The notes under the pieces were generated by a model that was given only the letters and a program-made list of their open reading frames with translations, was not told the origin of the DNA and searched no databases. The translations under genes were made by a program, and so were the position numbers. DNA of 12,220 bases from a virus (taxonomy: Duplodnaviria > Heunggongvirae > Uroviricota > Caudoviricetes), in IMG/VR virus record IMGVR_UViG_2534681937_000031. The stretch is one strand, 5' to 3'. Below are positions 3,039 through 9,663 of the stretch, piece by piece. Each line of letters begins with the position of its first letter. Position 1 is the first letter of the stretch.

Positions 3039-3515
3039 TTAAGTTCCTGTCTTGGTGATGTTCTGGCTTTTCCGTTTTGATTCTTGATTTTTCAGATAGT
3101 TAGCTACCTTCATTTCCATTGCGGCAATGTAGGCACGAACGTCATGATCAACCCAACTAGGCTCCGTAGCATTTCCAGATAAGAGGAAAGCCACAATTGC
3201 TCTTTTTTCATCAGAGGCGGCTTGATAAAGGCTGTTTATGTCTAAAAGTTCACTTTTTGTATCTGAAGTGGATGGGGTTGGTATGGGGTATTCGTTAAGC
3301 CCCCAATGCTCTGGACCAACCACATCAGAAAAGAAACGCCATAGTTCTGGAAGTTTGTCTTTACTTATCGAACCTTTCTTAATCCAGTCATGGATTGATG
3401 GTGGTTGGACTTTGAAATGACGTGCGATTTCCGCCTTTGATTTGACGGCTCCTGATGCAATTTTTTTGTTAATGGCCTGCTCTATCGCTCGGCCTAAGTC
3501 TTTACCACTAAGCAT
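3039..3515 (-). CDS. racR: prophage repressor, RacR-like HTH protein
   Basis: 158-aa ORF with N-terminal HTH (AEIARHFKVQPPSIHDWIKKGSIS); divergent from a Cro-like gene across an operator-rich gap; AGGAG 8 nt upstream of ATG at 3515. Length and context match E. coli Rac prophage RacR as recalled. Confidence 0.8.
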   Translation of the reverse strand: MLSGKDLGRAIEQAINKKIASGAVKSKAEIARHFKVQPPSIHDWIKKGSISKDKLPELWRFFSDVVGPEHWGLNEYPIPTPSTSDTKSELLDINSLYQAASDEKRAIVAFLLSGNATEPSWVDHDVRAYIAAMEMKVANYLKNQESKRKSQNITKTGT

Positions 3516-3543
3516 TGCTTAATAGTCTCCTATGCGCATCGCA

Positions 3544-3612
3544 TTAGGCAATGCCTACTCTCGAAGCGTTAGGCATAGCCTATTGACAATTGCATTAGGC
3601 TAAGCCTAATAT
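3544..3612 (+). promoter_or_regulatory. rightward early promoter (PR-like) with three operators (OR)
   Basis: Three palindromes at about 26-bp centre spacing: TTAGGCAATGCCTA (3544-3557), TAGGCATAGCCTA (3570-3582), TTAGGCTAAGCCTAA (3595-3609). -35 TTGACA 3583-3588, 18-bp spacer, -10 TAATAT 3607-3612. The third operator overlaps the -10. Confidence 0.55.
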
Positions 3613-3639
3613 TATTGTGTGTTTTTTGGAGTTCATTCG

Positions 3640-3963
3640 ATGAAAAAAGATAACTATTCATTCAAACGAGCTTGTGCTGTTGTCGGTGGGCAATCAGCAA
3701 TGGCTAGGCTTTTAGGTGTATCTCCTCCAAGCGTAAATCAATGGATCAAAGGTGTACGTCAGTTGCCTGCTGAGAGATGTCCTGCGATTGAACGAGCAAC
3801 AAAAGGTGGTGTCCTGTGTGAAGAACTTCGTCCTGATGTTGATTGGACATACTTACGACGCTCGTCATGTTATTCGCAGAATATGTCGATGAAGCAACCA
3901 AATGACGAAAACGATCATACCCGAAGCATCAAGAGGCAAATGATTCATGAAAATCAAACATGA
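3640..3963 (+). CDS. ydaS: Cro-like HTH regulator, YdaS-like
   Basis: ATG 3640 with GGAG 8 nt upstream. The ORF-track start at 3619 (GTG) lies at the predicted transcription start and is rejected. HTH motif QSAMARLLGVSPPSVNQWIKG. Sits immediately rightward of the repressor, as in the Rac racR-ydaS-ydaT arrangement. Confidence 0.75.
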   Translation: MKKDNYSFKRACAVVGGQSAMARLLGVSPPSVNQWIKGVRQLPAERCPAIERATKGGVLCEELRPDVDWTYLRRSSCYSQNMSMKQPNDENDHTRSIKRQMIHENQT

Positions 3964-4372
3964 GCACATCCGCATGGCGATGAATGCCTGGGCATATCCT
4001 GATGGTGAGAAAGTTCCTGCAGCTGAAATAGCCCGGACTTATTTCGAACTGGGGATGACGTTCCCGGAACTGTACGACGACAGCCATCCGGAAGCCCTGG
4101 CTCGTAATACCCAGAAAATTTTCCGTTGGCTGGATAAAGACACCCCTGATGCTGTTGAAAAAATGCAGGCTCTGTTACCGGCGATCGAAAAGGCAATGCC
4201 GCCTCTGCTGGTGGCCCGTATGCGCAGTCACAGCTCTGAATATTACCGTGAGATCGTCGAACGGAGGGATCGGCTGGTGAAAGATGTGGATGATTTTGTC
4301 GCAGCGGCGATCGCCTGGGGCACCCTGACTAACAGTGGGGGTCAGCCTGGTAATGCTGTTGTCGTGCATTGA
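3947..4372 (+). CDS. ydaT: YdaT-like protein (partner of YdaS in Rac-type immunity regions)
   Basis: 141-aa ORF overlapping the ydaS 3' end by 17 nt; AAGAGG 10 nt upstream of ATG 3947. Length and position match Rac YdaT (140 aa) as recalled. Confidence 0.75.
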   Translation: MKIKHEHIRMAMNAWAYPDGEKVPAAEIARTYFELGMTFPELYDDSHPEALARNTQKIFRWLDKDTPDAVEKMQALLPAIEKAMPPLLVARMRSHSSEYYREIVERRDRLVKDVDDFVAAAIAWGTLTNSGGQPGNAVVVH

Positions 4373-4440
4373 CCAACAATATTCATGCCGGATTTCTTCC
4401 GGATGTTCGAGGGTAAAGTTCGGTATCAGATGAGGTGAGT

Positions 4441-5478
4441 ATGGCTAATGCCTGGCTCAGATTGTGGCATGACATGCCAAATGATCCCAAATGGCGAACC
4501 ATTGCCAGGGTCTCAGGACAGCCAATCGCAACAGTGATGGCGGTGTATATCCACCTTCTGGTGAGTGCGTCACGAAATGTCACGAAATGTCACGGCGAGT
4601 CACTACGTGGTCACATTGATGTCACGACGGAAGATTTAGCAAGTGCGCTTGATGTGACGGAAGACGTGATTGATTCAATTTTGCATGCAATGCAGGGGCG
4701 AGTTCTGGATGGCGATCTTATTTCCGGATGGGAAAAACGCCAGGTGATGAAGGAGGATAACGGTAATGTTTCGCAAACCGCAAAATCCCCGGCAGAGCGC
4801 AAGAGAGCGCAGCGGGAGCGGGAAAGACTGCGGGAGCAGAACACTGATTGTCACGATGAGTCACGACGCGTCACGCATATGTCACGACAAGTCACGACAG
4901 ATACAGATACAGATAAAGAATTAAACCCCACACATAACGCGCGCATGCGCGAGAGTGCTCCAGCCAGTGAGTCGAATGGCGCGCCGTTGCAGACAGCAGA
5001 ACCTGAATACCCGGATGGCCTGAGCGAACCGATCGGGAAATTTCCGATGACTGGTGTCTGGCGGCCGTCGCTGGATTTTCGACAGCGGGCTGCATTGTGG
5101 GGTATGGCTCTGCCTGAGCCTGAGTTTACACCTGCTGAGCTTGCCGCATTCCGGGATTACTGGATGGCGGAGGGGAAGGTTTTCACGCAGGTTCAGTGGG
5201 AGCAGAAATTTGCCCGTCACGTGCAGCACGTCAGGGCACAGGTAAAACCAGTCAGCAAGGGGGTAAGCCATGCAGCACCAGGTGGCACCGCATCACGGGC
5301 AGTTCAGGAAATTCGGGCAGCACGTGAACAGTGGGAACGTGAAAACGGATTTATCAGCAACGGAAACGGCCTGGAAGCTGTGGGAACTTATGGGGGAGGT
5401 GTATTCGAACCGCTGGACCCAGAAGAACGGGGCTGCGCCGTCGAAGCTCTGGATTGCTCAGATTGGCGCGATGACTGA
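4441..5478 (+). CDS. replication initiator, O-like/YdaU-type, with DnaT-like C-terminal region; contains the iteron-type origin
   Basis: GAGG upstream of ATG 4441. Two clusters of GTCACG iterons lie inside the coding sequence, as ori-lambda lies inside O. The 3' 209 nt overlap the next gene out of frame. Confidence 0.65.
   Translation: MANAWLRLWHDMPNDPKWRTIARVSGQPIATVMAVYIHLLVSASRNVTKCHGESLRGHIDVTTEDLASALDVTEDVIDSILHAMQGRVLDGDLISGWEKRQVMKEDNGNVSQTAKSPAERKRAQRERERLREQNTDCHDESRRVTHMSRQVTTDTDTDKELNPTHNARMRESAPASESNGAPLQTAEPEYPDGLSEPIGKFPMTGVWRPSLDFRQRAALWGMALPEPEFTPAELAAFRDYWMAEGKVFTQVQWEQKFARHVQHVRAQVKPVSKGVSHAAPGGTASRAVQEIRAAREQWERENGFISNGNGLEAVGTYGGGVFEPLDPEERGCAVEALDCSDWRDD
4569..4626 (+). 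repeat. iteron cluster 1: six GTCAC(G/T/A) repeats at 10-11 bp periodicity
   Basis: Direct reading: GTCACGAAAT GTCACGAAAT GTCACGGCGA GTCACTACGTG GTCACATTGAT GTCACG. Confidence 0.75.
4850..4918 (+). repeat. iteron cluster 2: five GTCACG repeats at 10-11 bp periodicity, followed by ATACAG x3
   Basis: Direct reading: GTCACGATGA GTCACGACGC GTCACGCATAT GTCACGACAA GTCACGACAG ATACAG ATACAG ATAAAG. Lies about 224 bp downstream of cluster 1. Confidence 0.75.
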
Positions 5479-5932
5479 ACAGCAAATCCGGCAGGTCTGC
5501 CGTCAGTGCATGGACCGCTGCCGGGCGGGTGAAACGTGGCCTCCGGACCTGGCTGAGTTTGTGGCGTTGATTTCGGAGAGCGGGGCAAATCCATTTGGCC
5601 TGACGGTGGATGCCGTGATGGAGGAGTACCGTCGCTGGAGGAATGAATCCTGGCGGTACGACGGGAGTGATAAATACCCGTGGCCACAGCCGGTGCTGTA
5701 CCACATTTGCCTCGAGATGCGTGACAGAGGGATTGAGCGGCAGATGACGGAAGGTGAGTTAAAACGACTTGCAGAACGGCAACTGACGAAATGGGCAAAG
5801 CAAGTTGGTAACGGGATGAGTATTCCCCCGATCCGGAGACAACTCGCATCGCCGAAGTGCCCGCAAGGGCCAACGCCAATTGAATTACTGAAACAGGAAT
5901 ACGAGCGCCGGAAGGCGGCTGGTTTTGTTTGA
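5270..5932 (+). CDS. replication protein P-like (putative DnaB helicase loader)
   Basis: C-terminal half resembles lambda P as recalled (KYPWPQP...LYHI, MTEGELKRLAERQL, GMSIPPIRRQL versus lambda SYPWKSN...HYWL, LTDAELRRKAADEL, GEAIPEPVKQL). Start uncertain: ATG 5270 has AAGGGGG SD; alternatives are ATG 5390 and ATG 5471 (ATGA overlap with the upstream stop). Confidence 0.6.
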   Translation: MQHQVAPHHGQFRKFGQHVNSGNVKTDLSATETAWKLWELMGEVYSNRWTQKNGAAPSKLWIAQIGAMTEQQIRQVCRQCMDRCRAGETWPPDLAEFVALISESGANPFGLTVDAVMEEYRRWRNESWRYDGSDKYPWPQPVLYHICLEMRDRGIERQMTEGELKRLAERQLTKWAKQVGNGMSIPPIRRQLASPKCPQGPTPIELLKQEYERRKAAGFV

Positions 5933-5965
5933 ATCTGAGAAACGATTTTGTCGGAGGAAATTTTA

Positions 5966-6682
5966 ATGGAAACCGTATCTGACGCACTGAAAGCACTGAA
6001 AAGAGCCTCTTCACATGTGGTGGCAGCTCGCCTTGGAATTAGTCGTGAAGAGGCTGTCAACGAACTGTGGAAACTGAAACGCCGTGGAGAAGCGGATAAC
6101 AAGGGGGCGATATGGTGGCTGACTCAGGCTGGTGAAAGTGAACCGGTGTCACCGGTACCGAAAGTGACGGCGCAAATGCTGACAGAGGCGATTGAACAAC
6201 ATGGCCCACAAACGGCGGATGAACTGGCATTGATGTTCGGAATTACCTCCCGCCGGGCGAATTCATCGCTGGCAATGGCAATCAGCAAAGGGTGTCTGAT
6301 TCGCGTGAATCAGGATGGTAAATTTCGTTACTGCATACCGGGCGTTGATTTACCGGCAGAGCCGAAAGCAGCATCCGTAGCTGAAACGGAGGGTAAAGCC
6401 CTTCCTCAGCCAGCTGGTGTTGCGTTACCAGTCCAGGAAACGGCTGCACAGGAAGAAATTAAAACAGAAGCGGTGGAGGACATTGTGAAGTTGCAGCAAT
6501 CGTTCACTGAAGCGAAAGCAGATGACCTGATTCTACCATCGCTGCATGTGGCTAACCGCGAGCTGCGCCGGGCGAAAAGTAATGTTCAGAAGTGGGAGCG
6601 AGTCTGTGCTGCGCTACGGGAACTGAACAAACACAGGGATATTCTCCGGGATATTACCGCCACCAGAGAGCAGCAGCGGTGA
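5966..6682 (+). CDS. hypothetical protein with two winged-helix-like segments and a C-terminal coiled coil
   Basis: GGAGG 9 nt upstream of ATG 5966. First gene of a translationally coupled block. Confidence 0.55.
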
Positions 6683-9264: not shown

Positions 9265-9507
9265 ATTCATTCCGTATGGGAATTCCCATATCGGGCAAAA
9301 CGGTTTGCTGTAAAGCGAGAGTTAAGTAGAATTGCTGCGGGTGCTTGAGGCTGTCTGCCTCGGGCATGCCACCGTAAGGCAGACAGAGAAAAGCCCCAGT
9401 TAACATTACGCGTCCTGCAAGACGCTTAACATTAATCTGAGGCCCAATCTATGCTTCACAAACGTAGGTTAGCCTCTTACGCGCCGAAAGGCAAGGAGAA
9501 GCAGGTT
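9265..9507. other. hok leader/regulatory region (expected site of mRNA fold-back elements and any Sok-like antisense RNA)
   Basis: Contains a 22-bp near-palindrome CCGTATGGGAATTCCCATATCGG (9272-9294) and the hairpin CTGTCTGCC-N18-GGCAGACAG (9351-9386). An in-frame upstream ATG at 9451 with GAGG SD precedes hok. Antisense RNA not located. Confidence 0.35.
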
Positions 9508-9663
9508 ATGAAGCAGCAAAAGGCGATGTTAATCGCCCTGATCGTCATCTGTTTAACCGTCATAGTGACGGCACTGGTAACGAGGAAAGACCTCTGCGAG
9601 GTACGAATCCGAACCGGCCAGACGGAGGTCGCTGTCTTCACAGCTTACGAACCTGAGGAGTAA
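9508..9663 (+). CDS. hokD: Hok/Gef-family type I toxin (HokD/RelF-like, 51 aa)
   Basis: Translation MKQQKAMLIALIVICLTVIVTALVTRKDLCEVRIRTGQTEVAVFTAYEPEE matches the Hok family and, as recalled, E. coli HokD. AAGGAG 9 nt upstream of ATG. Confidence 0.9.
   Translation: MKQQKAMLIALIVICLTVIVTALVTRKDLCEVRIRTGQTEVAVFTAYEPEE

Follow-up and report, generated by a model that had tools for sequence, protein, structure and literature searches.

Here we describe the overlap of two replication genes, a replication initiator gene and a lambda-P-type helicase loader gene (P), in DNA of the IMG/VR virus record IMGVR_UViG_2534681937_000031. The window, that is, the whole stretch that was analysed, is 12,220 nucleotides (nt) in length. 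The initiator gene extends on the plus strand from ATG 4441 to 5478 and encodes 345 amino acids (aa); these coordinates are identical to those of the RefSeq coding sequence WP_001262323.1, and the mechanical list of open reading frames (ORFs) gives GTG 4435 as its start. The long form of P occupies positions 5270–5932 of the same strand in the +1 frame relative to the initiator, encodes 220 aa beginning with MQHQVAPHHGQFRK and ends at TGA 5930–5932. Its frame opens at 5267, directly past an in-frame TAA (5264–5266), and its Shine-Dalgarno (SD) sequence, AAGGGGGT (5257–5264, plus strand), lies inside the initiator coding frame, 6 nt 5' of ATG 5270. The initiator stop codon, TGA 5476–5478, takes its T from the end of P codon 69 (ACT) and its GA from codon 70 (GAA), and the two genes share an out-of-frame overlap of 209 nt (5270–5478), or about 69 codons. 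An earlier sequence-only reading had proposed an initiator frame open to 5478, a best SD and start of the P-like gene at 5270 and an out-of-frame overlap of about 70 codons, all of which were borne out. Two further plus-strand ATG codons lie within P: Met41 (5390–5392), which is the start in some database entries of 180–181 aa, and Met68 (5471–5473), which is the start chosen by RefSeq/PGAP and shares 8 nt with the initiator stop (ATGACTGA). The latter had been described as an ATGA coupling; the ATG is indeed present at the initiator stop and in use as the annotated start, but the overlap is of 8 nt and not the 4 nt of ATGA.

The initiator comprises an N-terminal domain, a disordered linker with candidate iterons, a DnaT-like single-stranded DNA-binding domain (residues 197–267), a helix (286–301; SRAVQEIRAAREQWERENG) and a disordered acidic tail (303–345). 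It matched the Pfam family PF17948 DnaT (62 bits, residues 201–267) as well as the DnaT structures 6aep and 4ou6 in the Protein Data Bank (E ~1e-19 to 1e-20), and is on these matches predicted to be a DnaT-domain phage replication initiator, or replisome organizer. Its AlphaFold2 (AF2) model had a low overall confidence (mean predicted local distance difference test, pLDDT, 58.4; pTM 0.31), with the DnaT domain (197–266) at pLDDT 83–91, a disordered linker, the helix 286–301 and a tail (303–345) at pLDDT ~30. The downstream protein matched PF06992 (60.9 bits vs. a gathering score of 26, residues 55–187), phrog_109 ‘P-like helicase loader’ (E = 1.7e-63, residues 18–219 of the long ORF) and, when the family profile was used, the lambda P structure 8v9t (E = 7.5e-6), and is likewise predicted to be a lambda P-type helicase loader. 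The Pfam DnaT domain and PF06992 thus support the names ‘initiator’ and ‘P-like loader’ that the two genes had been given before any database search. Both translations of the shared DNA were also recognized separately. The 67-mer of the P frame alone matched positions 22–73 of phrog_109 (E = 0.0026), collinear with the remainder of the protein, and the 69-mer of the initiator frame matched the initiator families phrog_3992 (E = 7e-13) and phrog_1408 (E = 8e-12) up to their C-termini. Within the initiator gene, GTCACG repeats with a spacing of about 10 nt occur on the plus strand at 4569–4626 (four exact copies) and 4850–4896 (five exact copies), and near-copies lie in between. In the whole window the hexamer occurs 14 times vs. 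5.5 expected, a number reached in none of 200 shuffles. These clusters, the second of which lies within the predicted-disordered linker, look like putative origin iterons.

The comparative loci were obtained from a scan of one genome per species (36 loci) and from 12 further E. coli or phage loci. The overlap set drawn from them comprised 39 sequences, which represent about 26 distinct lineages of the Enterobacterales. It ranges from Escherichia to Erwinia, Serratia and Pectobacterium, and the P proteins are as little as 46% identical. At every DnaT-type initiator/P-type loader locus of this set, P was in the +1 frame and both frames were open across 149–224 nt. By contrast, the lambda-type O/P loci found in the same scan and used as outgroup (L031–L039) overlapped by only 4–17 nt, with the N-terminus of P free-standing. 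The C-terminal half of the initiator and P are inherited as a unit behind varied N-terminal DNA-binding domains (DUF1376 and other ‘replisome organizer’ N-termini), and DNA matches at 69% coverage begin at ~4900. Such inheritance fits a cognate initiator–loader interface, although it does not prove one. The YdaU/YdaV pair of the E. coli K-12 Rac prophage was also tried as a comparison and was uninformative, as YdaU has neither this DnaT domain nor the tail (E = 0.4); it pairs with a DnaC-like loader with no overlap, and the C-terminal module therefore tracks the loader type.

Some loci departed from this arrangement. In L027 (Leclercia adecarboxylata LR590464.1) the initiator ends prematurely in an aberrant tail, and an open P frame is found only from the Met68 region onwards; this is probably a decaying prophage. 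Two Erwinia spp. loci (L023 and L029) carry P-like genes with the conserved WxLW…MxxIY N-terminus and no overlapping DnaT-type initiator upstream. Their N-terminal extension is far shorter, with ~10–28 aa ahead of the WxxW motif, which points to a context-dependent length of the flexible N-terminus of P. It was also observed that the C-terminus of the initiator (…LDCSDWRDD, 5452–5475) and those of lambda-type O proteins (…NNTDWINGVFDE…, upstream ORFs of L031–L039) both show [ST]DW in an acidic context. In the initiator this motif is dictated by the conserved P codons IAQIGAMT, and the resemblance may be coincidental.

With respect to the start of P, the ATG equivalent to 5270 was present in all 39 loci and was the sole candidate start codon for which this was the case. 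It sits in initiator codons CAT, AAT, TAT or GAT followed by Gxx, and because it is embedded in [C/A/T/G]AT-Gxx the initiator residue varies (His, Asn, Tyr or Asp) while the ATG is kept. Pairing of the upstream sequence with the anti-SD averaged −10.3 kcal/mol at this position vs. a background of −3.2 ± 2.6, and was −6 or lower in 97% of the 39 loci; in this window the duplex at AAGGGGGT reached −11.8 kcal/mol. The corresponding mean was −5.7 kcal/mol for Met41, which is an ATG in 38 of the 39 loci and CTG in L020, and −2.5 kcal/mol (no SD) for Met68, which is replaced by CTG or CTC (Leu) in four lineages. Upstream of both, W38 was encoded by TGG in 39/39 loci and W35 was conserved in 35/39, the overlapping initiator dipeptide varying only within xTG-Gxx, and ATG 5270 is the only conserved start upstream of W35 in the window. 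The P stretch MGEIYSNRWTxKNGxxPSxLWIAQIG was nearly invariant across homologues. The sequence-only reading had proposed aligning both proteins with their homologues, and this placed the conservation of P upstream of 5471 and also of 5390, and that of the initiator helix beyond 5270. Folding of positions 5215–5320 did not disclose an unusual RNA structure that could mask the P start (z = +1.04), and no promoter-like site was found internal to 4300–6100. Given that the ribosome-binding region is unremarkable in structure and that there is no such internal site, independent initiation on a common transcript is the simplest reading.

Selection was assessed from codon alignments in both frames by Nei-Gojobori counts of synonymous and non-synonymous differences (pS and pN), taking the non-overlapping flanks as controls. 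In the control DNA coding for the initiator only, pN/pS was 0.23 in frame and ~1.7 in the off-frames, while in DNA coding for P only it was 0.11 in frame and 1.5–2.8 off-frame. The overlap consisted of two segments on the plus strand. In the first one (B1, 5269–5388), the initiator linker and the helix SRAVQEIRAAREQWERENG are encoded over P residues 1–40, which correspond to the predicted disordered N-terminus and the start of the first helix of P, with the conserved W35 and W38. Both frames were constrained in B1: pN/pS was 0.26 for the initiator, 0.51 for P and 52 for the third frame in the E. coli set, and 0.64, 0.68 and 1.1–1.2, respectively, among genera. The +1-frame values were below the off-frame null of 1.7 (bootstrap P = 0.008 and 0.0005). 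Additionally, pS of the initiator frame dropped in B1 from 0.27 to 0.11 and from 0.71 to 0.47 (bootstrap P < 0.0005), so that the comparison of synonymous sites suggested in the earlier reading also came out in favour of dual coding at 5269–5388. In the second segment (B2, 5389–5475), P residues 41–68, which form helices of domain II, are encoded over the predicted-disordered initiator tail, and pN/pS was 0.05 in the P frame, 5.3 in the initiator frame and 5.5 in the third, non-coding frame. The 27 codons before 5471 were thus the most strongly constrained part of P. The position-class pattern of B2 was indistinguishable from that of P-only DNA (p = 0.44–0.92) and differed strongly from that of initiator-only DNA (p ≤ 1e-3). 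Therefore, purifying selection was seen on both frames in 5269–5388, and on the P frame only in 5389–5475.

The structural models were in line with this partition. The AF2 model of the 220-aa P (63-sequence alignment, mean pLDDT 77.9) had residues 1–26 disordered, followed by helices 25–45, 47–53, 59–66, 70–85 and 94–104 with pLDDT ~75–86 (~83–86 for the first three); residues 25–104 were domain II-like, and later helical regions were found at 113–180 and 203–216. In a Foldseek comparison it aligned with full-length lambda P in the complex with DnaB (9oa1 chain Z) over 220 columns, with a probability of 1.00 and a TM-score of 0.50. Lambda P is a protein of 233 aa with domains I–IV, namely, a flexible domain I or ‘N-terminal lasso’ (~1–29/40), a compact domain II (~30–119), domain III (120–192) and domain IV (PMC12661323). 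This four-domain layout, which in the cryo-EM structure of lambda P closes with a C-terminal lasso, is reproduced by the long form and requires the 5270 start; a start at Met68 would remove three of the five helices of domain II. According to the two models, each protein is ordered in the overlap where the other is disordered, the initiator helix coinciding with the disordered N-terminus of P and the P helices with the disordered initiator tail.

It must be noted that several points weigh against a long functional overlap. The position-class chi-square of B1 against initiator-only DNA was only marginal (p ~0.05), and for this reason we rely on the start site, on W35 and W38 and on the bootstrapped pN/pS values. 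P residues 1–26 are poorly conserved and predicted to be disordered, so that three other lines of evidence have to carry the coding case for 5270–5345, namely, the start site, the frame being open and a pN/pS that is moderate at ~0.5–0.7. The open frame was evaluated with a null in which synonymous codons were redrawn from the loci's own codon usage, and which was calibrated on control DNA (off-frame stop densities of 0.050 observed vs. 0.052 simulated, and 0.034 vs. 0.027). In this sequence alone the open +1 frame of 5270–5390 was unremarkable (codon-shuffle probability ~0.69), and an open P frame across B1 was likely by chance, at ~0.63 per lineage. Once the 39 homologous loci are compared, the open frame goes well beyond chance. 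Over the 19 diverged lineages the chance product was 8e-5, and the initiator frame was open between Met41 and Met68 in 17 of the 19 vs. ~0.27 expected (binomial 2e-8); these product and binomial tests overstate significance, because they take the lineages as independent, which holds reasonably, if not exactly, where synonymous sites are nearly saturated. Furthermore, the curated NCBI pipeline selects 5471 in every E. coli record examined. Finally, that both proteins are produced from these starts is something we infer from sequence comparison and structural models. Having established the coordinates, the conservation of the start site, the constraint on both frames and the correspondence in fold to lambda P, we nevertheless consider it highly probable that the dual-coding region is genuine and has been conserved in evolution, with full-length P initiating at 5270. 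This was one of the three alternatives raised in the sequence-only reading, and the comparative data support it strongly.

The explanations that begin P further downstream were considered against the same evidence. Were P to start at Met41 (5390), the overlap would be of 89 nt and the 120 nt of open +1 frame upstream would be a by-product of initiator codon usage. The many database entries of 180–181 aa, the ATG in 38/39 loci, the disorder of residues 1–26 in AF2 and the ease with which the +1 frame stays open by chance (~0.63 per lineage) agree with this, but W35 (35/39) and W38 (39/39) are conserved upstream and limit the initiator dipeptide to TGG-compatible codons, helix 25–45 spans Met41, the SD is weak (mean −5.7) and the codon is CTG in L020 while ATG 5270 and its strong SD are universal, and the +1-frame pN/pS of B1 is significantly under the off-frame null. 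A Met41 start is thus quite improbable, and ATG 5390 is probably just an internal Met codon. The RefSeq model, in which P would be made only from 5471 by termination-reinitiation (ATGACTGA) as a protein of 153 aa without the N-terminal third of lambda P, has on its side the PGAP annotation of all 12 E. coli records inspected and an 8-nt start/stop overlap resembling classic coupling. The 27 codons upstream of 5471, however, are the most constrained of P (0.05), have the substitution pattern of P-only DNA and form three helices of the domain homologous to lambda P domain II; moreover, no SD precedes 5471 (mean −2.5), four lineages have a Leu codon there, and in others the initiator stop has moved by 12–33 nt. 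We regard this model as very improbable, and the short P raised as an alternative in the sequence-only reading is refuted as the sole product. In a combined version, full-length P from 5270 would be accompanied by a shorter P, which would lack domain I as well as half of domain II and would arise when ribosomes terminating the initiator at 5476 reinitiate at 5471, and the open initiator frame would be selected for coupling. This would account for an initiator frame that stays open through B2 in 17/19 lineages with no amino-acid constraint of its own, and for a stop placed exactly 8 nt past an ATG in most lineages; yet the ATG is absent in four lineages, the stop lies 20–23 nt downstream or 33 nt upstream in several others, and according to AF2 the protein started at Met68 would have a broken domain II. 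Two isoforms therefore appear unlikely.

The remaining explanations concern the initiator frame. A programmed +1 (or −2) ribosomal frameshift would produce an initiator–P fusion, and it could be invoked because phrog_15931 (482 positions) matches both proteins and because fused ORFs of 481–496 aa exist in the databases (P0148 and P0185). Nevertheless, these are clusters of only one or two sequences with differing junctions, each of which is explained by an indel: a 1-nt change in the G5 run 5392–5396 in P0148, and a 49-nt deletion between the direct repeats GTGGGAAC at 5331–5338 and 5380–5387 in P0185. The fusions are so accounted for as sporadic indels or assembly errors, and the former probably created the mixed family phrog_15931. 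No shift motif was apparent by inspection, in the course of which no systematic search for slippery sites was made, and it is instead the independent SD and ATG that are conserved, which makes a frameshift hardly credible. The sequence-only reading had also raised that the initiator might normally end near 5270 and have lost its stop in this prophage, the tail being accidental. The predicted disorder of the tail (303–345) and the lack of amino-acid constraint of its own would agree with such a loss, but the same extension is found in all the homologous lineages, helix 286–301 is conserved across them under purifying selection (pN/pS 0.26), the phrog_3992 and phrog_1408 profiles reach the same C-terminus and the frame is open far beyond chance. 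A lost stop is refuted by these data, and we hold it to be extremely improbable.

Under the dual-coding interpretation, a single mRNA would carry both the DnaT-type initiator (4441–5478) and, in the +1 frame, the full-length lambda-P-type loader, the latter initiating independently at the internal SD/ATG (5257–5264/5270), 209 nt before the initiator stop. Along the first ~120 nt of the overlap, the conserved C-terminal helix of the initiator would be encoded over the flexible and poorly conserved N-terminus of P, the counterpart of the ‘N-terminal lasso’ (domain I) of lambda P. Along the remaining ~87 nt, helices at the beginning of the compact domain II of P would be encoded over the disordered acidic tail of the initiator, whose sequence would there be dictated by P, with its frame nonetheless kept open. 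As P in B2 is homologous to the non-overlapped domain II of lambda P, the P frame is the ancestral one in this segment, on which the initiator tail was overprinted as a derived frame. We infer a function of the initiator tail that requires translation to ~5476; a role of the acidic tail itself, or the need to terminate near 5476, could possibly explain why the frame is open.

In lambda, according to the older literature, the C-terminal region of O and the N-terminal region of P contact each other. On this background a more speculative extension of dual coding, which we put forward as doubtful, is that the overlap has been selected as an ‘interface lock’, its 209 nt encoding the interacting ends of both partners, that is, the helix and acidic tail of the initiator and the lasso and first domain II helices of the loader. 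If so, recombination in mosaic prophages could never part a loader and the initiator end that is cognate to it, and neither partner would change without a concomitant change in the other. In a variant of this proposal, termination at 5476 may drive reinitiation at 5471 and give rise to a truncated, regulatory isoform of the loader.

The start of P is annotated in different ways. RefSeq/PGAP places it at 5471, giving the 153-aa ‘replication protein P’ WP_000139462.1, in the 12 E. coli RefSeq records inspected. Two out of three phage GenBank records use the 5471-equivalent and the third one starts further downstream (141 aa). In a protein search of public databases, the P homologues showed four start calls, of ~220–223, 180–181, 153 and 140 aa, and the calls differed even between nearly identical loader sequences, e.g., 223 vs. 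181 aa in Klebsiella. The homologues of 216–223 aa cover 97–100% of the long P, and forms of this length are already produced by the gene callers of other databases. We judge that 5471 is a mis-called start, although it may still give rise to a minor product by reinitiation. The RefSeq loader consequently lacks ~67 residues at its N-terminus, among them three helices that belong to a folded domain, and anyone expressing or modelling the annotated 153-aa protein would be working with a truncated domain. The main value of this study lies in the correction of the RefSeq annotation and in the use of the pair as a clean model of how dual coding is partitioned between replication proteins that cooperate.

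The window is a lambdoid/Rac-like prophage of E. coli O157:H7. Positions 4441–5932 are 100% identical to several O157:H7 chromosomes, and related DNA was carried by 1263 of 5426 complete E. coli genomes. The gene order at the locus is racR-like repressor, ydaS-like gene, ydaT-like gene, initiator (4441–5478), P-like loader and a DUF1627 gene. The region 3039–4372 resembles an immunity region, with the racR-like repressor on the minus strand (3039–3515), a YdaS/Cro-like helix-turn-helix gene (3619–3963) and a YdaT/CII-like gene (3947–4372) that shares 17 nt with the preceding one. The minus-strand ORFs at 5388–6014, 5354–5704, 4921–5271 and 5503–6102 had no Pfam match and were treated as mechanical ORFs. 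No Rfam family was found within the overlap; the sole Rfam match in the window was to RF01794, the sok antitoxin RNA, at full length on the plus strand (9339–9513; 114.9 bits vs. a gathering score of 59), and the prophage may accordingly carry a toxin-antitoxin locus of the hok/sok type. Among the phage records, PP818812.1 (L051, ‘Actinobacillus phage vB_Apl-pPE4’) has a replication module 88.8% identical in nucleotides to that of the E. coli prophage; this similarity is surprisingly high for a Pasteurellaceae host, and the host may have been mis-assigned or the record contaminated.

Phage phiX174 and the lambda Rz/Rz1 pair are classical examples of overlapping genes. As in overprinted phage gene pairs in general (reviewed in PMC8227390), the two genes described here are read from one strand in shifted frames, with ordered segments encoded over disordered ones and one frame locally dominant. 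Unlike the classical embedded pairs, the overlap is terminal, between the 3' end of one gene and the 5' end of the other, and it joins two proteins expected to cooperate, as they must at the replication origin. Moreover, in contrast with the classical overprinted pairs, P is the older frame in the part that it dominates, with the initiator tail as the derived counterpart. The junction also resembles the coupled ATGA/ATGnnTGA type, as ATG 5471 is placed 8 nt ahead of the stop of the upstream gene, and this explains the choice of 5471 by PGAP; it differs from that type in that the conserved coding sequence, the SD/ATG and the folded domain reach ~200 nt further upstream. Long same-strand overlaps are already known in phage genomes, and this pair is a well-supported further case with no new mechanism. 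In the literature, no description of this initiator–loader overlap was found. The pair offers a clean and deeply sampled long terminal overlap of a bacterial virus with a division of labour between frames, and hence a convenient system for the study of overlapping-gene evolution and of how mosaic phages keep initiator–loader specificity together.

Among replication modules, the closest counterpart is that of lambda O and P (8v9t/9oa1; PMC12661323), in which an iteron-containing initiator is likewise followed by a P-type loader. The loader described here shares with lambda P the match to PF06992 and, in its AF2 model, the collinear arrangement of domains I–IV, and as in lambda O-P the C-terminal half of the initiator travels with P in mosaics. 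It differs from the lambda-type loci (L031–L039), where the 4–17 nt of overlap leave the whole N-terminus of P downstream of O, in the ~69 codons shared by the two genes, and the C-terminal half of the initiator is a DnaT-like domain with a helix and a tail instead of the lambda O C-terminal domain. A second counterpart is DopC/DopE, which comprises a domesticated O-like protein with a DnaT C-terminal motif and a P-like protein (Brezellec et al., 2017; PMC5509034). As far as that report describes it, a DnaT_C-containing initiator-like protein is also there paired with a PF06992 P-like protein, although DopCE, unlike the prophage pair, is chromosomal, was reported to lack iterons and is found in other orders of bacteria (PMC5509034).

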